A stretch of 64,000 bases of DNA from a virus, in IMG/VR virus record IMGVR_UViG_3300030202_000274, positions 2,594 to 66,593 of that record. One strand, written 5' to 3'. A program made the position numbers and the translations under genes. Positions within the stretch are counted from its first letter, which is position 1. Each line of letters starts with the position of its first letter. This document shows positions 5,339-64,000 of this stretch, piece after piece. The notes under the pieces are model-generated. The model ran no database searches. It was not told where the DNA came from and saw only the letters and a list, made by a program, of their open reading frames with translations.

Positions 5339-7358
5339 CGTTAGTTTGAAGTTTAGGATATAAAGATAGTATCGTCAAAGGTAAAGGTTGGTTTTGTCTT
5401 ACAAATATAAAACCATCTGTCTCATAGTTTCCTCTAAACTCTATTTCTTTATCACCTGTAAATACATTGATCCCACTATCCATTGCGTTAGCTGAAGATC
5501 TAAATGGTATTCGTTCCATGTTATCTAAATCTGGACCAATCTCCACACCAATACTTTCATAAAGTCTAGCAGTAATTTCATAGATTCTTTTAGTTTTACT
5601 TTGTGATGTACCATTCTGCGCACCAGCATCTATTCTCATTGTTTGTAATAAAGATGTGTAGCTTAATCCAACTTTAACTTTAGTTGCAGATCTTTCTAAT
5701 GTGATCTCTCCAGAACTTACAACTTTGTTTGGATGCGTTGCGCCATCAGCTAATATTGAAACTGTTTGACCCTCAAGATGAGAAAGACCAGATATAGTTG
5801 TAACTGCAGATCCACTATAAGATAATTGTGAATCTAAAAAATTAAATGAAGTATCATCTGTTTCATCAAAATCATATTGATGAATAAATTCTACATATCT
5901 TTTTGTTGCACCATTAATTGTTCTTTTTACAATTACCCATGTTTGATATTCAGAATCATCTGTAGGTATTGTTGCAACACTTTCACAAACTGAATTACCA
6001 CTTCCAAATGCTCCACCAAATATATGTCTATGAAAAGCAACTACCTGTTGTTCTCTCTGATAAGTTAAACCAACTAACTGACCATCGTTTCTTGCGCACC
6101 ATATAACTTGATTAGGTTCTTGTTGATATGATAATTGTTTAAATCCAGTTTCTGAAATATGTTCGGCAAGGATAGTTAAGTCTGGAGCAACATAACCATC
6201 TACATCAAAGTTATAAGCTAGTTCTCTTAGTTTTCTTTTTGCTCTTTGTAAAAATATAGTTGCGTTACCAACAGCTAAAGCATCTACATTTGCAGCTCCA
6301 TTGTTAGATTGTTTTTTAATTAATATGTTTGTAGGTGTAATAGCATTATCAGTTCCACCCCCACTAACTGCAAACTCACCACCAGCTGTTCCAATAATTA
6401 AAGTTCTTGTTGCTGTCATAAAACGAATTGCGTTTACTTGGTTAGAAGCAATCGTATAAATAATAGCATCATCATCTGCTATAGTACCACCTCTATTCTC
6501 ATTCATGTTTTCATAATCACCAGACTTTGAAAAAAATATTGTTTGTGGTTGAGATAATGTTGCAGCAAAAACAAGTCTTTGTTCAAAGAAGGTTACGCAA
6601 GAAGGATGACCTGTAGTATCTGAAAATGAACCTAGCGACCAATCAGTTGAAGAAGTTGATGAACCTGTATCTTCTATAACTTGCCAAGTAACAACTGTTG
6701 TAGATGTTCTTCCAGTTATCTTTCCATAACCATCTCTAAATCTAACTAGCCTTCCAATGTCTGTTGTTTGAAAACCAGTATTACTATTAATACCTGTTGT
6801 TGATGAAGCAGTTAAAGTTCTACCAGTTCCAACTGTATGATGAGTTGTTGTTAATGTTGTTGATGTAATATTATCATCCATATATGGTCCATCAGTAAAA
6901 TCAACTTCTGTTAAACTCCAAGATGTATGACCTGTTCTAGCTAACTTTCTAGCAGCATGATTAGGATGGCAAAGATACATAACATCAGCAGATTGTGCGA
7001 ACTTAATATCAAATAATTCTGCTTCTAAATAAGGTGATGATATTTCATAAGCTGAACCACTAGATAATATTTGACCATCATCTTTATAAAATCTTATGTA
7101 CTGATTACCAAACTCAAGTATGTAAGTTTGTGTTGTACTAAACTCAAAAGGAATTAATCTTGTTTCTTTTGTAGAATCTTTTACTTCTGCTACAAACTGT
7201 GTACCACTTCTTCTTGCTGCGCTTCCATGAGGAAACACAATCATGTTTTCTAAAGTCTTACATCCTGTAGAATATTTTTGTAAATCGTTTCTTCCATCTA
7301 GTCTTGGAGATAATTCACCACCTGTAAAGTTCGTTAATTGAACAGCAACTCTAGCCAT
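5331..7358 (-). CDS. Tail tubular protein B / nozzle (phage A)
   Basis: NFTGGELSP N-terminus, FFEQRLVFA and QPLPLTILS motifs; 675 aa. Confidence 0.85.
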   Translation of the reverse strand: MARVAVQLTNFTGGELSPRLDGRNDLQKYSTGCKTLENMIVFPHGSAARRSGTQFVAEVKDSTKETRLIPFEFSTTQTYILEFGNQYIRFYKDDGQILSSGSAYEISSPYLEAELFDIKFAQSADVMYLCHPNHAARKLARTGHTSWSLTEVDFTDGPYMDDNITSTTLTTTHHTVGTGRTLTASSTTGINSNTGFQTTDIGRLVRFRDGYGKITGRTSTTVVTWQVIEDTGSSTSSTDWSLGSFSDTTGHPSCVTFFEQRLVFAATLSQPQTIFFSKSGDYENMNENRGGTIADDDAIIYTIASNQVNAIRFMTATRTLIIGTAGGEFAVSGGGTDNAITPTNILIKKQSNNGAANVDALAVGNATIFLQRAKRKLRELAYNFDVDGYVAPDLTILAEHISETGFKQLSYQQEPNQVIWCARNDGQLVGLTYQREQQVVAFHRHIFGGAFGSGNSVCESVATIPTDDSEYQTWVIVKRTINGATKRYVEFIHQYDFDETDDTSFNFLDSQLSYSGSAVTTISGLSHLEGQTVSILADGATHPNKVVSSGEITLERSATKVKVGLSYTSLLQTMRIDAGAQNGTSQSKTKRIYEITARLYESIGVEIGPDLDNMERIPFRSSANAMDSGINVFTGDKEIEFRGNYETDGFIFVRQNQPLPLTILSLYPKLQTNDG

Positions 7359-14347: not shown

Positions 14348-14581
14348 ATACTACATCTAGTGTATTTAAGTTTTGAAACAATAAAAAAAATAAAATTTGC
14401 AAAAGTGTTAATAAATGGGTGCAGGGTTGTTTGTGGGGGTGTCTGTGTATGGGTGTGGAAATGGATGTGTGTGGGTGTTGGAAAATCCCATGTATAATGA
14501 TATGTATATCGCACACGCAAATTTTGGGTGTACCCTACCTTTAAAAATCAAAAAATATATTTTCTGTCTGTTATTTAATAA

Positions 14582-50536: not shown

Positions 50537-50714
50537 TTACACCAACATTTGCTTTTAACAGATTGTATATAGTTTCTTCACCAAAAGCTTCTACAAGTTT
50601 ATCAGCTTCATAGTCTGTTATCATGTGTGTTGGATAATGTTTAAGATGTGTATTCTTAACGATAGTTCTTAATCTTTTACGATCTTTTAAACTTAAATTA
50701 TTGAGGAACGACAT
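50526..50714 (-). CDS. Hypothetical protein
   Basis: Coupled in operon. Confidence 0.55.
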   Translation of the reverse strand: MSFLNNLSLKDRKRLRTIVKNTHLKHYPTHMITDYEADKLVEAFGEETIYNLLKANVGVNVD

Positions 50715-50980
50715 TTTAATTGTTCTACCCTTTCTAATACTATTTTCAAGATTTCTTCTTCTTTACCATATTTAGCTTCAAATTCTTTCTTAGCCATGTG
50801 TATAGAGAAGTTTCCTTGATGATGGTCATGACATAACGGAATCACGTGGAAGTGGCTTGTACGTCTTCCTATGCCAGTTCCAGGGGGTCTTATATGATGT
50901 AGGTTAGCTGGTCTTTCGCAAACATAGCAGCCAAGCTCAGCTACCCACCTCATATGTTCTTTTTCTTTTTTTGTCGCCAT
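50693..50980 (-). CDS. Ref/DUF968-like HNH nuclease
   Basis: CxxC...HHIR...IPLC..HH.G...H. Confidence 0.75.
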   Translation of the reverse strand: MATKKEKEHMRWVAELGCYVCERPANLHHIRPPGTGIGRRTSHFHVIPLCHDHHQGNFSIHMAKKEFEAKYGKEEEILKIVLERVEQLKCRSSII

Positions 50981-51325: not shown

Positions 51326-51460
51326 CTAACGCCCTTGCCCTTTGTACCTAGTTTGCTTCTTTTGTCTTTTGGAAGATTTGTTTTGGCTCTTAGTATGAAC
51401 CCCTCGTCTTTTCTTAGGTTTATCTCTTGGTATAAAATGTGTAAACTTCTGTTTTGCCAT
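51326..51460 (-). CDS. Tiny basic protein (44 aa, not in ORF track)
   Basis: MAKQKFTHFIPRDKPKKR...RYKGQGR; homologue of 25812..25949. Confidence 0.7.
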   Translation of the reverse strand: MAKQKFTHFIPRDKPKKRRGVHTKSQNKSSKRQKKQTRYKGQGR

Positions 51461-51576
51461 GCGTACCTTTTTGAACCCTGTTGTCTGTGAGAGTTGCCTC
51501 GTCAGCTATGGCTGATGATTTTTGCCCCCACCCTCCGACTCTGCTAGTCGTAGATGTGTGGGTGCATACCAACGCC

Positions 51577-51951
51577 TCACGTTAGATCTATATTAATCTT
51601 AATATCCCCCTGTATATTGTGAGATACCTTATCTGGTGTTCTCAATCCTACTCTATCGAGAATATCTCTACTAGCTTCTAGTTGAACATATTCACTCCTC
51701 GCCCCTGTGGATAGCTCGATAAGTCTTTTACTCGCACTTACTGCGCCAAGTCCAAGAGTTTGTGCAATACGTTGTTGCATATACTGTTGTACCTTTGGTA
51801 AACGTAGTGTGCGAGAAGCACTTACTCTCGCTGAATCTTTGCTAACTTCTGTTGAATATCCTGCCTTTTTAGCAGCTTCTGTTATACTACACCCAGTAGC
51901 TACGATTGTATCTACTAGGTTTCGTTGTTTCTCTGTTAGATCGTCTTTCAT
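51577..51951 (-). CDS. terS: Terminase small subunit (phage B)
   Basis: LTEKQR...TEAAKKAGYS...ASRTL..PKV...A..DILDR.G. Confidence 0.85.
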   Translation of the reverse strand: MKDDLTEKQRNLVDTIVATGCSITEAAKKAGYSTEVSKDSARVSASRTLRLPKVQQYMQQRIAQTLGLGAVSASKRLIELSTGARSEYVQLEASRDILDRVGLRTPDKVSHNIQGDIKINIDLT

Positions 51952-51978
51952 AACGCTTATTTATTCTACCCTTAACTG

Positions 51979-52007
51979 TTCGTAGTTATTTTAATTGTCA
52001 CTGTCAA
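51979..52007 (-). promoter_or_regulatory. Sigma70-like promoter for terS / late operon
   Basis: TTGACA-N17-TACGAA on the minus strand. Confidence 0.45.
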
Positions 52008-52062
52008 GAGAAATAACAGGACTTTAGTGGTATTGGAAACTCACATAACTATATCTTGTATG

Positions 52063-52410
52063 GCGACTTACAGGCTCTAGTTCGCTTTGCTCACCCAAGC
52101 CCTTCGGTCTTGTCCCTAAAGGGTAACGATCCTGGTCGCATTGATCAATCCTCTGGATTGCTCTGAAGGAGTTGCCAAAGGCAACGCTTACAACCCCATA
52201 CGCAATTTTCTAAAGAAACCGTTCGCTGTTGCTCACTATTGCTATGGGTCCCCCCCACACACGTGGATTAATGTGCTTGTATCATGAGTTTGCCTTAATG
52301 AACAGTGCAAGGGACATCAGCGCCTCACCTAAAGGTGATTCCCCTTCGGGTGCGCTGTGTCGCACTGTGTCATTAAGCTTTGCCTCATGATGACTGCACA
52401 CCTTAACCAC
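52063..52410. other. Large multi-domain structured element (ssDNA or RNA)
   Basis: GC-rich, non-coding, many nested inverted repeats (see findings). Confidence 0.75.
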
Positions 52411-52460
52411 ATGCGTTATGCCATGTCGGTTATAAAGTAAACGATAACAGAAAGGTTACA

Positions 52461-52631
52461 ATGGAGTACGTTAAATACTATGAGTTGATAACAGATGAAC
52501 ACGATAAGAAAAGAGTTGTTGAGTTATCAATGTTAAGAGAAGAAGCTATAGTGAAAGCTGACTATGATAAAGTTAGTGAATTAGATAGCGAAATAAATAA
52601 TATAACTAAAGGAGTTAGATATGATGGGTAG
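52461..52631 (+). CDS. Early hypothetical protein (56 aa, not in ORF track)
   Basis: GAAAGG RBS; MEYVKYYELITDEHDKK. Confidence 0.55.
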   Translation: MEYVKYYELITDEHDKKRVVELSMLREEAIVKADYDKVSELDSEINNITKGVRYDG

Positions 52632-53115
52632 TGAATTAAATCAACAAGATTATTCAGATAGTAGATTAGATGATATGCAAGATGTATTAGATTGTGTTGA
52701 TATGAAAGCTGGTGTTACTGGCTTTTTCAATACAGTTATATCACCATTTGCTGATCATCCAGACTGGTCTATGTTAGCTGAATGGAACGCTAATAGTATT
52801 ATTGGTGTATTCCAAAGACATCATGAGCAATGTATCAAAAGTCTAGATAAGACAAAAGATCTTATGCAGACTGCGTTACGAGAAGATGTTGGTAATGAGA
52901 TTACTAAGCTAAATGTTGACAAGTTAATATTTAGACGTGATGCTCAAGAAGTTAATATCAAAAGAGCTAAGTCTATATTGAATGAGTTTCTTCTATGTTA
53001 TGAAACTACCTTTGGTAAGAAGTTTATGCCTCAAAGCAAAGCTCCTGTTAAAGATGTTACTAAACAGATGAAAGAATACAATATGACTAGACTAAAAGAA
53101 GCTCTAGGTAAGTAA
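52621..53115 (+). CDS. Early hypothetical protein
   Basis: 164 aa, AGGAG RBS, followed by a terminator. Confidence 0.7.
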   Translation: MMGSELNQQDYSDSRLDDMQDVLDCVDMKAGVTGFFNTVISPFADHPDWSMLAEWNANSIIGVFQRHHEQCIKSLDKTKDLMQTALREDVGNEITKLNVDKLIFRRDAQEVNIKRAKSILNEFLLCYETTFGKKFMPQSKAPVKDVTKQMKEYNMTRLKEALGK

Positions 53116-53127
53116 TAATAAACAATC

Positions 53128-53164
53128 AAACCCGGTACTCTTAACAGGGTACTGGGTTTTTTTT
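53128..53164 (+). terminator. Rho-independent terminator
   Basis: AAACCCGGTACTC/GGGTACTGGGTTT stem plus T-run. Confidence 0.8.
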
Positions 53165-53256
53165 ATCGTTACAGCCCATTTTCAAAACGTTCGGCGTTGA
53201 AAATCATTGGGCGTTGCTGCCGAAATTCTATAAACTAATAAACAAAGGAGAATACT

Positions 53257-54327: not shown

Positions 54328-54526
54328 AATTGGAGATATATTAAACAGCATACCAAAAAAAAGAAGAAGAAATGCTAATACAATTAAGTATGGTATGTTT
54401 GGTTTATCTTTAGGACCAGAAACATACGAAAGATTAAATAAGTATTGTTTTAAACATAATATAGCAAAAGCTACATTAGTTAGAAATTTAGTAATTAAAT
54501 ATTTAGATGAGGTAGATAATGTATAA
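54314..54526 (+). CDS. Ribbon-helix-helix-like DNA-binding protein
   Basis: FGLSLGPETYERLNKYC...KATLVR.L...YL. Confidence 0.55.
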   Translation: MKTIEIGDILNSIPKKRRRNANTIKYGMFGLSLGPETYERLNKYCFKHNIAKATLVRNLVIKYLDEVDNV

Positions 54527-54854
54527 TGTAATATTATGGAAAGATAATGATAATGAAGATATTCATGTATTTAAAAATAAACCAACATTTGCAGATTTAT
54601 ATCCATTATTAGAATGTGATACGATTGAAATATTGCAAGGTTATGATTCAGATATATCTAATCGTACATTTGATATGTTTTGTGATGAAGAATCAAAATT
54701 AAAAAATACAACATATCCAAATAAAAGAGCAACCAAAGCTTGGTACAATTGGCAACAAAGAACTAAAAGACAATGTTTACCAGGAGATCATATTGTAGGA
54801 TCTGTTGCTATTATTAAAAAACAAAAGTTTAAATTAAAGGAGATTGATGGCTAA
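54519..54854 (+). CDS. DUF3846-like protein
   Basis: MFCDEESKLKN...N.RAT...D.IVG. Confidence 0.6.
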   Translation: MYNVILWKDNDNEDIHVFKNKPTFADLYPLLECDTIEILQGYDSDISNRTFDMFCDEESKLKNTTYPNKRATKAWYNWQQRTKRQCLPGDHIVGSVAIIKKQKFKLKEIDG

Positions 54855-55188
54855 TTGTTATTACCATTCTAAATCATCAGTAAAAAAATGGGGTGGTAAA
54901 ACTACAGACTACCAACCTATACATGATTGGTTTGATGAATCAAAAAAGATTGTTGCACACTATACTCATAGAGCATTACGACATCATGCTGAAGGTTGTT
55001 TTGCTGCCGAAAAAGAGTTTGGTACTACTATTACAAATTCTGATGGTAAAGTTGTTCCCGTCAGACTTATTGCCGAGCAACACATTCGTGAAGATCTAGG
55101 TTGGATTCCTAGTTTTCAAGATTGGGCAGTACAAATACGAGCAACACAATGGATGATAAGAGGATATAAAAATGTTGGAAAAGATTGA
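54844..55188 (+). CDS. DUF6915-like His-rich protein
   Basis: H..SS..KWGG...DY..IHDWFD.SK...HRALRHHAEG...EQH..EDLG. Confidence 0.7.
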   Translation: MMANCYYHSKSSVKKWGGKTTDYQPIHDWFDESKKIVAHYTHRALRHHAEGCFAAEKEFGTTITNSDGKVVPVRLIAEQHIREDLGWIPSFQDWAVQIRATQWMIRGYKNVGKD

Positions 55189-55561
55189 AGACGTACTTAA
55201 AGCTTTACATAAACATGGTATTACTAAAATTACTATTGATTATGAAGGTGGTCATGACGAAGGTACATTTGATGAATGTGTCTTTTACAAAGGTGAAAAC
55301 AAAGTTGTTGTAGATTGGGACAAAGTCATGAATGAAGAAGCTACTGACTTTGATGATAATAGTTTTTTAGGTTTAATTTATTCAGATTATGGTAGATTAA
55401 ATCAACACTATTCGTTTGCTTCAGAATATTCTTGTCGTGGTACTGTTACTATAAATACAGAAACAGGTGACTTTGATGATGATGGTTATGAACGTACAGA
55501 AACAGAAACAGATACATATCATACAGGTAATGTATTTAAAGAACAGAAAGAGGTATTTTAA
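55172..55561 (+). CDS. DUF6878-like acidic protein
   Basis: L...GI....I.Y.GG.D.G; usual partner of DUF6915 as I recall it. Confidence 0.6.
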   Translation: MLEKIEDVLKALHKHGITKITIDYEGGHDEGTFDECVFYKGENKVVVDWDKVMNEEATDFDDNSFLGLIYSDYGRLNQHYSFASEYSCRGTVTINTETGDFDDDGYERTETETDTYHTGNVFKEQKEVF

Positions 55562-60691: not shown

Positions 60692-61062
60692 TAATGACCT
60701 CCATTTGCTCTAACTTTATCTTTTAATTCTTCAATATCAGCTAACGCTTGATCTAATTGTTCTCTTAAAAATTCTATATTAACTTTGTTAGTCATGTTCA
60801 TTTCTTGAGTCTGTTCCATTTTCTCTACAGATTTATAAAGATCCTCAATTAAAAATATTTGCTCTTGGTCTACGGGGACTTGTTCAGATTTTTTAAGTAA
60901 ATCATTTTGAAATAATTCTCTTGATGTTTCCAGAGATACTAATCTAGAAGTTAGTTCTGTATATGCAAACACTCCTGCTGCAACTAAAATTATTAACGAA
61001 GCTACTGTTTTCATAGGCATTTGAACAGCTGCCGAATCTGAAATATTTAGTGGCTTAGACAT
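60691..61062 (-). CDS. TM plus coiled-coil protein (spanin-like)
   Basis: Paralogue of 25358..25720. Confidence 0.55.
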   Translation of the reverse strand: MSKPLNISDSAAVQMPMKTVASLIILVAAGVFAYTELTSRLVSLETSRELFQNDLLKKSEQVPVDQEQIFLIEDLYKSVEKMEQTQEMNMTNKVNIEFLREQLDQALADIEELKDKVRANGGH

Positions 61063-61439
61063 TATTTTTTTCTCATGATGTCAGCACCCTTGAGTCCATA
61101 AATCGCCGATACTACACCGATAAAAATTGCTTGATACCAATAAGGTAAATTTTTGAAATACTCAAAAAATAAATCTAATTTATTACGTATTTCTGGATCG
61201 TCAGAAAAAACAGACCAACCCAATAAAAGAATAGGCAAAGATACAAGGATAAGTACAAATTCGTCTTTCCAACCATTATCATTACTTTCAATAACTTTCG
61301 CTTTATATTCAAGTTCACCTTTACTCATTTGCTCTGCATGACGCATTTGTGCATCTGCCATAAGCATTTGTGTTTGTTTTTTTTTCTTGTATATATGCGA
61401 TCCTGCTTGGACTGCAAGTTTTATTCCACTAAGCCACAT
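61062..61439 (-). CDS. Putative holin
   Basis: Paralogue of 26065..26442. Confidence 0.7.
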   Translation of the reverse strand: MWLSGIKLAVQAGSHIYKKKKQTQMLMADAQMRHAEQMSKGELEYKAKVIESNDNGWKDEFVLILVSLPILLLGWSVFSDDPEIRNKLDLFFEYFKNLPYWYQAIFIGVVSAIYGLKGADIMRKK

Positions 61440-61440
61440 A

Positions 61441-61842
61441 TTAATATTTCCATACGTTAGGTCTTACTACATACTTTTGATCAACATCTACAGTTAACCA
61501 ATCAAGATGAGTAAAAGTTTTAGCTATACCAATACCTGTAGGTTTTGGATCCCAGTGCAAAGCAAAGTCTAATAACTGATATTGTTTTTGTGGTGATGTT
61601 GCTATGTCAACAGCAAACCCAGTAGTATGAGGGCCACTGTCACCAGTAGAACTTACTTTACTATTGTGTTCTGGACATCTATAAGCTGAAGTAATTGTAA
61701 CACCTTCTTGAATGTAATCACGCCATGCCTGGCAAAAGTCTAAAACTATTTCGGAAATTTTTAATTCTCCACAACATTTACATTTAAACTCGTTGCTGCT
61801 AAAATTATTATATTTAGCAAAATTTGTACCATCAGTTATCAT
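61441..61842 (-). CDS. Endolysin, peptidase M15 family
   Basis: NFSSNEFKCKCCG, TSAYRCPEHN, H..G.AVD, GIG...F.HLD; start set at MITDG after GGAG. Confidence 0.85.
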   Translation of the reverse strand: MITDGTNFAKYNNFSSNEFKCKCCGELKISEIVLDFCQAWRDYIQEGVTITSAYRCPEHNSKVSSTGDSGPHTTGFAVDIATSPQKQYQLLDFALHWDPKPTGIGIAKTFTHLDWLTVDVDQKYVVRPNVWKY

Positions 61843-62596
61843 ATTGTTTCTCCAGTCTATCCATAGATATAAATTGACTTTCTTGTATATGGTTATCCCA
61901 GATACCGAGTTCAACTATACCCCAAGACCATCCAGTTAAATTCATCTTAGCATAGTCTTCTACATGCCCATGTGGCAACGCACATCCAACATTAACTATT
62001 CTAACATAATTTTTGTCACCAATTTTAGGAGCTTTCCAATCTCTAAATTTATGAGTATGTCCAAATACAATATCATTAGTAGCATCATTAGCTACTTGGA
62101 CTTCACAGTTTTTACCACCATACTCTTTGCCCATTATATTTAAAGGACAATGAGTAAATGATACACCACCTATATTTTTAAAAGCTCCATATGGAGATCG
62201 TTTCCATTTACGATTATCAAAAGAATCATGCAGTTCTTTTTTCATCATACCTGCTATTTCTGGTATACCTTCTTCAAACTTATAAACTCTTTGTTCATGA
62301 TTACCAAAAGTAATATGTCGTGGTATTAAATCATTATCAATATGTTTATCTAATATATCTATTGAAGATCTTAAAGAATCTATATCTACCATAAAAGCAT
62401 CTTTAAGTTTACCAGCTTGTGTATGATTTTTTTGAAAATAACTTAAACTATCAAAAGATGCCCAGTCACCTATTTGAACAATATAATCTGGTTTAACAGA
62501 TTTAATATATTTACCTATCCATTTAAATCTATCTTGTTTTATATGTGGACAATCATGGGCATCCCCAATAACTATTATTCTATGACCTTTAAACAT
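61832..62596 (-). CDS. Calcineurin-like metallophosphoesterase
   Basis: DAH, GD..., GNHE, H, GHTH motifs. Confidence 0.85.
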   Translation of the reverse strand: MFKGHRIIVIGDAHDCPHIKQDRFKWIGKYIKSVKPDYIVQIGDWASFDSLSYFQKNHTQAGKLKDAFMVDIDSLRSSIDILDKHIDNDLIPRHITFGNHEQRVYKFEEGIPEIAGMMKKELHDSFDNRKWKRSPYGAFKNIGGVSFTHCPLNIMGKEYGGKNCEVQVANDATNDIVFGHTHKFRDWKAPKIGDKNYVRIVNVGCALPHGHVEDYAKMNLTGWSWGIVELGIWDNHIQESQFISMDRLEKQYDN

Positions 62597-62801
62597 TTTG
62601 TATTTCCTTACACAAAAATTTAGTTGCTAATCTAAATTCATTAACATCTTCATCTTTCTGTTGTGCAAGAAAATTAATACTATAATCAAGTGCTTCAACA
62701 ACGCACTCATTCCATGAGTTATATATTATATTACTTTGTACTGGTGGACTACATTGATTACTAGTAAAGGTACAAACCCATACTATTAATACAAATTTCA
62801 T
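62589..62801 (-). CDS. Small Cys-containing protein
   Basis: Paralogue of 27442..27657. Confidence 0.6.
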   Translation of the reverse strand: MKFVLIVWVCTFTSNQCSPPVQSNIIYNSWNECVVEALDYSINFLAQQKDEDVNEFRLATKFLCKEIQNV

Positions 62802-63037
62802 TTAAAATTAAAATAACCAATAATACCTGCAGCAAGACTACCAAGAACAACAAGTACTTTAACTATTCCTTTTCCAGTAGAAACATTATCACTTAATTGT
62901 TCTACTTTTTTTTCAAGTCTTTCAATAGATTTTAAAATATTATTCATTCTTTCAGCACAAAGTTTTTCATGTGATGAAAGTCTAACTCCAGTAGTTACTT
63001 CGCTATATTCTCTTGGAGTTATTTTTTTTCTAGCCAT
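62798..63037 (-). CDS. Coiled-coil plus C-terminal TM protein
   Basis: HEKLCAERM; paralogue of 27210..27449. Confidence 0.6.
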   Translation of the reverse strand: MARKKITPREYSEVTTGVRLSSHEKLCAERMNNILKSIERLEKKVEQLSDNVSTGKGIVKVLVVLGSLAAGIIGYFNFK

Positions 63038-63285
63038 TATGCTTTAGGTATATCTGATTTAACTTTAGCAATAGCATCTTCCCAGTTAGTAGTACCATTA
63101 ACCTTATCCCAGTATTGCATATCTAACTGTTCTTGTATTGATGGATAAGCAGTTGCTCTTTCTCTTTGATATTGGTTAGCATCATACTCTGCTTTTTCTT
63201 CTAATCCTTGTGCTTCTTCTGATTGTCTTACAGCAATTTCTTCTGCTGTCATATCTACAAGTATTCCATTTTTTAATTTTTTCAT
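63037..63285 (-). CDS. Fibre-associated chaperone
   Basis: C-terminal two thirds nearly identical to 27657..27911. Confidence 0.65.
   Translation of the reverse strand: MKKLKNGILVDMTAEEIAVRQSEEAQGLEEKAEYDANQYQRERATAYPSIQEQLDMQYWDKVNGTTNWEDAIAKVKSDIPKA
63042..63205. repeat. Direct repeat R1, copy 2
   Basis: Matches 27662..27825. Confidence 0.95.
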
Positions 63286-63287
63286 AA

Positions 63288-63866
63288 TTATCCTTTTATT
63301 CCGTAATGATAGTAAGATGAGTAAGTTATATTACCTGTTCCAAAATAAAATTGAACAGCATCAGCAGTTACATCACTTGAATTATATAAATGTCCAACTC
63401 CTAATAATGTTCTATACAATGTGTTATCATCATATCTGTAACCAGATATATGTACTGTATTTCCATGATGACCATTTGAAGTAGATTGTCTTGGATATAT
63501 TAAAACATTTAGACTAATTCCTTCATTTACAGTTCCACTACCAGCACCACCACCACACTCTATATAAGAAAAATCTCTACTTGCATGACCTGTGTCAATA
63601 CCAGAAGTACCATCGGTAAAATAATTTCCAACAGCAAAAGAATAATCTCCAGAACCACTTTTAAAACTAGAGCCACCATCTGTGCTTAATCTAACTCTTA
63701 AACCTTGTCCATCTGTAGCTGGTGCTATGCTTTCTAAATAAATTTGATGAATTTTATAACTTGTAGATAAATCTAATTCTAAGGTTGCTACATCTGTAGT
63801 AGTACTTGCACTATTTAATAAAACTTTACTTTTACCAGAGTTTGCTCCTAATGTAATTAATGCCAT
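63288..63866 (-). CDS. Fibre tip / receptor-binding module
   Basis: MALIT start, LSTDGGSSF; divergent homologue of 27914..28474. Confidence 0.6.
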   Translation of the reverse strand: MALITLGANSGKSKVLLNSASTTTDVATLELDLSTSYKIHQIYLESIAPATDGQGLRVRLSTDGGSSFKSGSGDYSFAVGNYFTDGTSGIDTGHASRDFSYIECGGGAGSGTVNEGISLNVLIYPRQSTSNGHHGNTVHISGYRYDDNTLYRTLLGVGHLYNSSDVTADAVQFYFGTGNITYSSYYHYGIKG

Positions 63867-63988
63867 ATTGTTATACTCCTATTAACGCTTGGATTTCGTC
63901 ATCATCTAATCCCAAGTCTTTTAGTTTTTGTTTGCCAGATGCTTTCTTAGTTTCTTTGTTTGCTTCAGCGTCTTTTAATTCTTGTTCA
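63853..63988. repeat. Direct repeat R2 (a+b contiguous), copy 2
   Basis: Equals 28461..28497 plus 28564..28665 without the 69-bp insert. Confidence 0.95.
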
Positions 63989-64000
63989 TAAGCGTTTGCT
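63871..64000 (-). CDS. Fibre-associated chaperone, 3-prime part (truncated)
   Basis: ...EQELKDAEANKETKKASGKQKLKDLGLDDDEIQALIGV identical to the end of 28548..28808. Confidence 0.7.
   Translation of the reverse strand, partial: ANAYEQELKDAEANKETKKASGKQKLKDLGLDDDEIQALIGV

Follow-up and report, generated by a model that had tools for sequence, protein, structure and literature searches.

What is the strongly folded element that separates the terminase gene from the early operon of this podovirus, from which strand and in which form, DNA or RNA, does it fold, and what could it do for a phage with no recognisable replication gene? The DNA analysed here (the window, 64 kb long) is part of a 66.6-kb IMG/VR virus record which carries two podovirus structural sets, each with portal, capsid, tail tube, terminase and internal virion proteins, and which therefore consists of two genomes of ~33 kb joined together. 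The element sits in genome B of this record, with terS on its left and, on its right, a 7-kb plus-strand operon of ~25 small genes, annotated with Pfam and PHROG as coding for two HTH_3 proteins, a YqaJ exonuclease and an SSB, among others. The portal of phage B has its closest cultured relative in Pelagibacter phage EXVC031P Hodr (57.6% identity). Among the annotated ORFs of phage B no polymerase, primase, helicase or initiator family was recognised (Pfam/PHROG); the preliminary description of this DNA had already remarked on the missing initiator, primase and helicase, and our own annotation agrees and adds the polymerase. Likewise, neither an RNA polymerase family nor a GIY-YIG family (ssnA) was found in the ORFs searched, no Rep/HUH gene was recognised, and the 1074-aa virion protein has no sequence match in Pfam or PDB. 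The proteins of 56 aa (orf56) and 164 aa encoded by the first two early genes belong to no Pfam or PHROG family. The predicted model of the latter is a helical bundle (pLDDT 84.5) without a fold match at E <= 0.001, and an ESM Atlas search gave nothing. The equivalent intergenic region of phage A (14300-14700) is unstructured (z -1.06). The locus is organised as follows.

51577..51951, minus strand: terS, small terminase subunit, left neighbour of the element (phrog_51, E 2.5e-14; Pfam Terminase_2, E 8.6e-14)
51952..52062, no strand assigned: AT-rich conserved control region, outside the fold, containing CACTTTAGTG (a small palindrome), the block AACTCACA and, 8 nt ahead of D1, CTATAT (nhmmer alignment of 57 sequences, 42 distinct)
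52063..52139, minus strand: D1, a four-way junction with closing helix P1 (GCGAC/GTCGC + AGG/CCT) and hairpins P2, P3 and P4
52146..52185, minus strand: two short hairpins, a replaceable middle module (from sequence and folds)
52195..52248, minus strand: D3, with CCCATA/TATGGG and GCAAT/ATTGC as closing helices (39 sequences, 18 of them distinct, aligned by nhmmer)
52242..52263, no strand assigned: linear motif CTATGGG-Y-CCC..ACACACG, the most conserved part in the family, joining D3 to the rod
52257..52416, minus strand: rod of ~160 nt, in which the arms are conserved, the internal loops match and the Y-shaped cap (52326-52352) varies
52417..52460, plus strand: short AT-rich spacer, where TATAAA (52431-52436) resembles a -10 box and the first early gene has its ribosome-binding site
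52461..53115, plus strand: first two early genes (56 aa, orf56, and 164 aa), conserved beside the element

When the sequence from 51700 to 52800 was read again, every helix of the preliminary description was found, with unchanged coordinates. In D1, GCGAC (52063-52067) pairs with GTCGC (52135-52139) and CAGG with CCTG; the middle module consists of the hairpins CAATCC-TCT-GGATTG (52146-52160) and GTTGCC-AAA-GGCAAC (52171-52185), and the outer helix of D3 joins CCCATA (52195-52200) to TATGGG (52243-52248). The D3 hairpin GTTCGC-TGTT-GCTCAC reads GT-GA-GC-AACA-GC-GA-AC on the minus strand, with a tandem G.A pair. When the rod is aligned arm against arm, i.e. the region against its own reverse complement, 63 of 69 pairs of 52257-52416 are Watson-Crick. 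Its conserved arms are GCTTGTATCATGAG-TTTGCC on one side and TTTGCCTCATGATGACTGC on the other, an invariant duplex ATCATGAG/CTCATGAT is flanked by identical loops, and the Y-shaped cap is made of TCACC-TAAA-GGTGA and CCC-TTC-GGG. The lowest helix of the rod contains two A.C mismatches on the plus strand, which are G.T pairs on the minus strand. Two repetitions reported earlier, C-TAAA-G three times and GTTCGC-N3/4-GCTCAC twice, are indeed present in the sequence.

The element is a member of a large mosaic family in marine podovirus contigs. The search for relatives of terS gave 514 viral-contig stretches (80 were retained), and that for relatives of the gene for the 164-aa protein gave 32 loci; the matches of the 461-nt region to these loci are patchy, with identities from 72 to 99%. 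The comparison set used below comprises the window and 90 non-identical upstream regions (91 sources). Profile searches of these 91 regions showed that the control region is widespread, that D1 occurs in 43 and the rod in ~45, and that the middle part is swapped for other sequence, some relatives carrying a ~190-nt insert there. Besides the window itself, nhmmer recovered the full middle module in 16 near-identical regions and matched part of it in 8 further ones, and the modules that replace it elsewhere are unrelated in sequence yet equally hairpin-rich. The linear motif CTATGGG-Y-CCC..ACACACG occurs in at least 118 viral-contig stretches (pattern scan). A scan of 185,579 bacterial genomes for the motif gave 9 matches; the taxa are GC-rich and unrelated, the similarity does not go beyond the motif, and the matches are due to chance and therefore give no clue to a host or prophage. 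In Hodr, a single imperfect hairpin of 520 nt (z -14) takes in the entire intergenic region and the first ~50 codons of the first early gene, and no mirrored reading frame was found in it. At this position, then, long hairpins of unrelated sequence are a general feature of the group.

The preliminary description had made the reality of the fold depend on conservation and covariation in relatives. Both were found, the compensatory changes being clear in D1 and less clean in the rod, and because it is conserved and co-varies the element can be considered real and more than a chance fold. A covariance model of D1 (R1) gave 35 matches, 26 of them distinct, in the 91 sources. In the model-fitted alignment 92.3% of cells pair, against 23-46% with slid partners; 10 of 25 pairs have changed on both sides, the covariation score is 0.172 against 0.054 in shuffles, and none of 500 shuffles reaches any of five covariation measures. 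A U6.G72 wobble in D1 (15 of 26 sequences) was not counted for the plus strand, as the Watson-Crick alternatives C9-G72 or A6-T72 explain it. The outer pairs of D3 also co-vary (GT..AC, AT..AT, AC..GT, CC..GG) around an unchanged TCGC..GCTC core. For the rod, a sequence-only alignment of a curated set of 42 distinct rods was used: 80.0% of cells pair (27.8-43.9% with the partner slid), the covariation score is 0.124 against 0.071 in shuffles, and 127 cells have changed on both sides against 63.5, neither value being reached in 500 shuffles. By contrast with these measures, the number of rod pairs changed on both sides (17) was reached in 252 of the 500 shuffles, and there were 32 further pair types where shuffles gave 42.7, so that neither measure shows an excess. 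RNAalifold returned no structure from the raw MAFFT alignment of the rod, because the variable caps misalign. Gene conversion from arm to arm could keep the long rod arms alike; it could not account for the 4-6 bp helices of D1.

The folding energies of the element are exceptional for either kind of nucleic acid. The segment 52055-52420 was compared with 100 dinucleotide-preserving shuffles, using RNA and DNA parameters on each strand, and beat all 100 in each of the four settings. As RNA, the minimum free energy (MFE) is -124.5 kcal/mol (z -5.32) on the plus and -139.6 kcal/mol (z -6.28) on the minus strand; as DNA, it is -67.8 kcal/mol (z -6.08) and -77.1 kcal/mol (z -7.19), respectively, and the DNA folds recover both the four-way junction D1 and the Y-shaped cap. 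Over 12 homologs the mean z is -5.02 (RNA) and -7.12 (DNA) on the plus strand, and -5.57 and -7.38 on the minus strand, so that the stronger z comes from the DNA parameters in all 12 homologs for the minus strand and in 11 of the 12 for the plus strand. In this respect the element resembles the single-stranded DNA control, the viral strand of the M13 intergenic region (RNA z -5.82, DNA z -6.5), and differs from the sense strands of rnpB (RNA -4.07, DNA -2.48) and ssrA (RNA -1.2, DNA +0.68), which show the opposite, three controls being few. The comparison of energies per strand envisaged at the outset hardly separates the strands: the gap between them as DNA is small, the minus strand being the stronger in 8 of 12 homologs, which we count against a DNA reading, and the M13 control is clearly one-sided in z-score whereas the element is nearly equal on both strands.

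Four tests, based on mismatches, GNA triloops, the sequence GCGNAGC and tandem G.A pairs, point to the minus strand as the one that folds, i.e. the terS-sense strand, which is also the template of the early genes. Mismatches were counted in folds with G.U forbidden, where the strands are equal, and only as single mismatches with two Watson-Crick pairs on each side. The family yields 56 distinct contexts of A.C on the plus strand and 18 of G.T (binomial p 1e-5); like the counts of loops below, which are taken from predicted folds, these counts of contexts lack phylogenetic independence. As a control, 69 other 460-nt segments of the window yield 20 and 27 (Fisher p 4e-4 for the element against the control). 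When 18 clusters without mutual similarity are considered, the cluster-averaged sums are 28.4 and 9.8, with more A.C in 13, more G.T in 2 and a tie in 3 (sign test p 0.007), and a second set of 101 cores gives 27 and 7. The commonest 2x2 loop is T.C/C.T on the plus strand, a tandem G.A on the minus strand (10 contexts, against 1 of the mirror type). On the minus strand these tandem pairs stand mostly in the contexts C-GA-A/T-GA-G (16 sequences) and C-GA-G/C-GA-G (7), both of the form Y-GA-R, the rule that sheared G.A pairs follow. Wobble and purine-purine pairs are tolerated on the minus strand, which therefore appears to be the folding strand. A test that requires no fold gives the same indication: GCGNAGC is found on the minus strand in 22 contexts and 29 of 91 elements, on the plus strand in 1 context, and once in all in the other 63 kb of the window.

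The loops are of types known from DNA. Triloops (89 contexts) are about as frequent as tetraloops (92) among the predicted hairpins. GNA triloops closed by 5'-C..G-3', as in DNA mini-hairpins, account for 23 contexts on the minus and 1 on the plus strand, and TTTA loops, which contain a T-A pair, for 14 and 1. GNRA and UNCG together make up 5 of the 92 tetraloop contexts, either strand considered, so that RNA-type loops are nearly absent. Among relatives, the minus strand of D1 hairpin P2 reads GC-GAA-GC, GC-GCA-GC, GC-GTA-GC, GC-AAA-GC or GC-TTTA-GC, the middle base of the GNA loops varying while G and A are kept. Of the 26 distinct sequences, 16 carry a GAA loop at P3, while at P4 GAA is found in 13 and TTTA in 9; CCGAAGG is present on the minus strand in P3 and at the rod cap. 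These comparative counts uphold the earlier view that the minus strand carries T-rich loops, GAA triloops and tandem G.A pairs, and strengthen the structural half of the inference drawn from it, a structured single-strand origin, priming or packaging signal, whose functional half stays a prediction. A 2026 review describes GCGNAGC and GCGNNAGC as extraordinarily stable DNA mini-hairpins that bind SSB poorly and have much weaker RNA counterparts (PMC13037366); d(GNA) loops are reported to depend on the closing pair (PMC3201870). According to the same review of mini-hairpins, those of the GCGNAGC type are found at the complementary-strand origins of G4, St-1 and alpha3, IncQ ssiA carries CCGAAGG, and the hairpin promoters of N4 carry GGA or GAA loops (PMC13037366). 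Two loops are counted against a DNA reading: on the plus strand CCCTTCGGG also allows the reading cUUCGg, a tetraloop, and the single apex loop of the Hodr hairpin reads UUCG on the minus strand.

The element thus looks more like folded single-stranded DNA than like RNA, and our best explanation, to which we give slightly less than an even chance, is that it is a minus-strand-specific initiation signal on single-stranded DNA, with priming or a hairpin promoter as its predicted function. Such a signal would work at the DNA level when the minus strand is single-stranded. The fold with its conservation and covariation, the strand and the DNA-type motifs are observed; that the strand reaches this state in vivo, and what would bind it there, we infer. 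The strand might be exposed as a displaced or lagging-strand template, as an exonuclease-resected end, or in a bubble opened by supercoiling between divergent promoters. It would then fold into the four-way junction, the small hairpins and the long rod, a compact and very stable structure in which many hairpins would end in C-GNA-G or TTTA loops and gain stiffness from tandem G.A pairs, and the mini-hairpins would resist being coated by SSB. In known systems, mini-hairpins mark where a host or plasmid enzyme begins an RNA primer or a transcript on single-stranded DNA. A phage with an SSB and a YqaJ-type exonuclease, and without polymerase, primase, helicase or initiator, may recruit the priming or transcription machinery of its host through such a fold. 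Against this explanation, we know of no single-stranded stage in tailed double-stranded DNA podoviruses, and multiple branches with a conserved four-way junction are more characteristic of RNAs than of the single-stranded DNA signals known so far. Weinberg et al. note, moreover, that single-stranded DNA and RNA motifs are not reliably separable by computation (PMC5737381), and it is for this reason that the DNA reading is kept tentative, just short of even.

Several described systems resemble the element in part. The origins of G4, St-1 and alpha3 and the ssiA and ssiB sites of IncQ plasmids are likewise strand-specific sets of single-stranded DNA hairpins with motifs of the GCGNAGC/CCGAAGG type (PMC13037366), and they work with priming enzymes of the host or plasmid without an initiator gene of their own. 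However, they belong to single-stranded DNA phages or to a plasmid oriV and span ~40-140 nt with one to three hairpins, whereas the present element measures 350-550 nt, includes a four-way junction and a 160-nt rod, and is found in a double-stranded DNA tailed phage. The Frpo/ssi promoters of plasmid leading regions share with it a long imperfect hairpin directly upstream of small early genes, and an SSB in the same operon, which is reported to stimulate Frpo (PMC11541004). As in Frpo, the folded strand (minus) is the template of the genes from orf56 onward (plus). Frpo differs in having -35 and -10 boxes in its stem, and in DNA that enters single-stranded, whereas the DNA of this phage enters double-stranded; the best match to such a promoter in the stem is TTGCAC-18-CATGAT, at 7 of 12 positions, the -35 part of which differs among relatives as judged by eye. 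The single-strand origins (sso) of rolling-circle plasmids and the M13/f1 intergenic region are also orientation-specific and highly folded; they measure 150-500 nt, require host factors and pass as cassettes among relatives, and the M13 region shares the stronger z as DNA than as RNA but is strongly one-sided, which the element is not. The CS-6 hexamer TAGCG(T/A) in a terminal loop, a feature of ssoA of rolling-circle plasmids, is absent from both strands of 52063-52420. The early hairpin promoters of N4 consist of 5-7 bp hairpins with purine-rich 3-nt loops (GGA/GAA) on the template strand, upstream of the early genes, and SSB assists their extrusion from double-stranded DNA (PMC13037366); N4, however, requires an injected virion RNA polymerase, and no polymerase-like protein was found in the searched ORFs of this phage. 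Lastly, ARRPOF, GEBRO and PAGEV are plasmid-associated covarying motifs of 223-349 nt near replication regions, which may be single-stranded DNA according to their authors (Weinberg et al. 2017, PMC5737381). The element differs from them in host context and is matched by no Rfam model.

Searches for other described signals were negative. There is no DnaA-box cluster: with the E. coli consensus, 27 one-mismatch boxes occur in the window against 23.6 expected, and the one DnaA-like box within the element (52403-52411) is not conserved. The SRM pattern (PMC11893778) has 0 matches on either strand of the window, and ARAGORN found no tRNA or tmRNA. The large noncoding RNA raised as an alternative in the preliminary description gained no identity from Rfam 15, whose covariance models gave 0 matches at gathering scores in the 64-kb window and, at E <= 10, only noise, from HTH-XRE (15.4 bits, against a gathering score of 49.8) and tpke11 (14 bits). 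Comparison of the region with 50,697 phage records by blastn gave no match, and we found no paper on pelagiphage Hodr or on pelagiphage intergenic hairpins. The element may figure among the 10,000 candidate phage RNAs announced in PMC10690425.

The alternative that survives best, which we nevertheless consider unlikely, is a noncoding RNA in the minus (terS) sense, acting as an antisense regulator of the early leader or as a primer RNA of the ColE1 RNA II type; the minus-strand G-run and (GU)n tract at 52250-52263 recall R-loop-forming primer RNAs. The strand tests fit such an RNA equally well, with G.U in place of A.C and tandem G.A pairs, and in 9 of 12 homologs the RNA z is stronger on the minus than on the plus strand. 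The stretch is also found in RNA libraries: contigs of four runs from four studies could be placed on 51400-53200, where their coverage of parts of terS, of the element and of orf56 is low and about the same, and the element may therefore be transcribed. As to metatranscriptome coverage, proposed earlier as a check, the stretch is thus present at about the depth of its neighbours; the contigs give no strand, start or level, and DNA carry-over may be involved. Single runs show stretches without cover within 51400-53200. A transcript in the minus sense would need a promoter to the right of the fold, and no conserved leftward promoter was found in the spacer or the 5' end of orf56, nor any -35/-10 pair on the minus strand of that 5' end; the segment 51800-52700 also contains no terminator-like site. 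The loops speak against this RNA as well, triloops being about as frequent as tetraloops and GNRA/UNCG nearly absent, as does the lack of an Rfam match, and GCGNAGC mini-hairpins reportedly have far lower stability when made of RNA (PMC13037366).

A structured 5' leader of the early operon in the plus sense, starting from a promoter that ends in the CTATAT before D1 and regulating the first early genes through stability, RNase III processing or translation, appears to us quite improbable. The early RNA of T7 has a long leader to which it could be likened. The conserved CTATAT 8 nt before D1 and the end of the fold 25-45 nt before the ribosome-binding site agree with a leader, as do, in Hodr, the pairing between the base of the hairpin and the ribosome-binding site of the first early gene, the reading of CCCTTCGGG as cUUCGg and a 151-nt RNA-library contig that runs from the rod into orf56. 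Nevertheless, no conserved -35 precedes CTATAT, and a promoter consensus scan of 51800-52700 found no 9-of-12 site in the control region or spacer. Two weak promoter-like sites inside orf56, given by the same scan, were rejected as no more than shuffles contain. The plus strand, moreover, tolerates A.C and tandem U.C/C.U instead of G.U (56 A.C to 18 G.U, the reverse of what a plus-strand leader or noncoding RNA should show), and in place of RNA-type loops it has c(UNC)g triloops, which at P2 cannot be read as UNCG and for which we know of no stability in RNA. GCGNAGC lies on the opposite strand, and the z-scores of the plus strand are the weakest. In the control region, CTTGACA is invariant on the minus strand (52002-52008), 39-92 nt upstream of the terS start in most of the 91 regions, and is likely the -35 box of the terS promoter, pointing away from the fold. 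Its place to the left of the fold, and the lack of a conserved leftward promoter to the right, count among the points in favour of the DNA reading. On the other side, only 25-45 nt lie between the fold and the orf56 start codon in relatives, most with a -10-like hexamer (by eye), and the spacer (52417..52460) is possibly the early promoter. If so, the fold would lie between divergent promoters and be transcribed by neither.

A function in duplex DNA, as protein sites (terminase pac, regulator operators) or as a supercoil-driven cruciform between the divergent promoters, with the long repeats then kept alike by arm-to-arm gene conversion, would suit the almost purely Watson-Crick pairing, the about equal folding of the strands, the position beside terS between two divergent operons, the invariant ATCATGAG/CTCATGAT duplex with its identical flanking loops and the Hodr palindrome, which at 520 nt is near-perfect, extends into the coding region and resembles an inverted duplication at the DNA level, but it is scarcely probable, since neither gene conversion nor dimer binding explains the compensatory changes in the 4-6 bp helices of D1, the strand bias of mismatches, loops and GCGNAGC is left unexplained, and so is the replacement of middle modules by unrelated yet equally hairpin-rich sequence.

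Returning to the signal on single-stranded DNA, its interest lies in the phages that carry it, which have no recognisable replication gene, occur commonly in marine viromes and are related to cultured Pelagibacter phages: a conserved, strand-specific DNA fold at the operon junction is a concrete candidate for the site where host enzymes are recruited. Mismatch asymmetry, loop types, the strand bias of GCGNAGC and a controlled comparison of z-scores as DNA and as RNA could, in combination, also be used to re-sort other "candidate RNAs". If the element is an RNA instead, it would represent a new large family of phage noncoding RNAs. Natural single-stranded DNA structures that go beyond a hairpin are, to our knowledge, very rare, and screens for RNAs by comparative methods do not distinguish them from RNAs. 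In general terms, widespread marine double-stranded DNA phages that lack replication genes may carry a large multi-branched single-stranded DNA fold, formed by one strand, which recruits host priming or transcription where the early and late operons meet and whose modules are swapped like cassettes, a proposal that we advance tentatively and think somewhat less likely to be right than wrong; if true, this would be the most complex natural single-stranded DNA signal known in a tailed phage.

In the 66.6-kb record, podovirus genes for structural proteins and terminase occur as two complete sets that share one divergent layout. The record is either an assembly-joined pair of ~33-kb genomes or a true tandem:

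1-25000 and 60700-64000: phage A
25300-60000: phage B

The folded element lies in phage B, between terS and the early genes, and two features of its gene neighbourhood are as follows:

50693-50980, minus strand: small nuclease gene of HNH/DUF968 type, between terS and terL
54519-55561: DUF3846-, DUF6915- and DUF6878-like genes, in the early operon

This latter run of small genes resembles the layout of the anti-defence 'leading regions' of plasmids, and the last gene of the operon encodes SSB.

Immediately to the left of the fold, a control region (51952-52062) is more widely conserved than the fold itself. It contains:

minus strand: invariant CTTGACA
10-bp palindrome CACTTTAGTG, which may be an operator
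block AACTCACA
CTATAT

In Pelagibacter phage EXVC031P (Hodr; OQ414635), the closest cultured relative, positions 6016-6560 form a near-perfect single hairpin of 520 nt (fold-energy z-score against shuffled sequences, -14), which takes in the intergenic region between terS and the early genes as well as codons 1 to ~50 of the first early gene; its left arm contains no reading frame. At the corresponding intergenic position, phage A shows no significant fold (z-score, -1.06). A C+A-rich tract of ~90 nt with CCACACCC-like repeats is found there on the minus strand (14400-14500), and is reminiscent of the C-run and (CA)n motif beside the rod of phage B, although in the opposite sense.

Several metagenomic contigs (L004, L029, L033) end in the interior of this rod (52257-52416), two of them at its apex. 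These ends probably reflect an assembly break, due to the palindrome or to strain mosaicism, rather than a genome end. In some close relatives (L002, L007, L099 and others), an unrelated insert of ~190 nt takes the place of both small hairpins together with half of the third domain (52140-52222 in the window), while the first domain, a four-way junction, and the rod are still 93-97% identical. The replacement is a cassette-like exchange inside the element.
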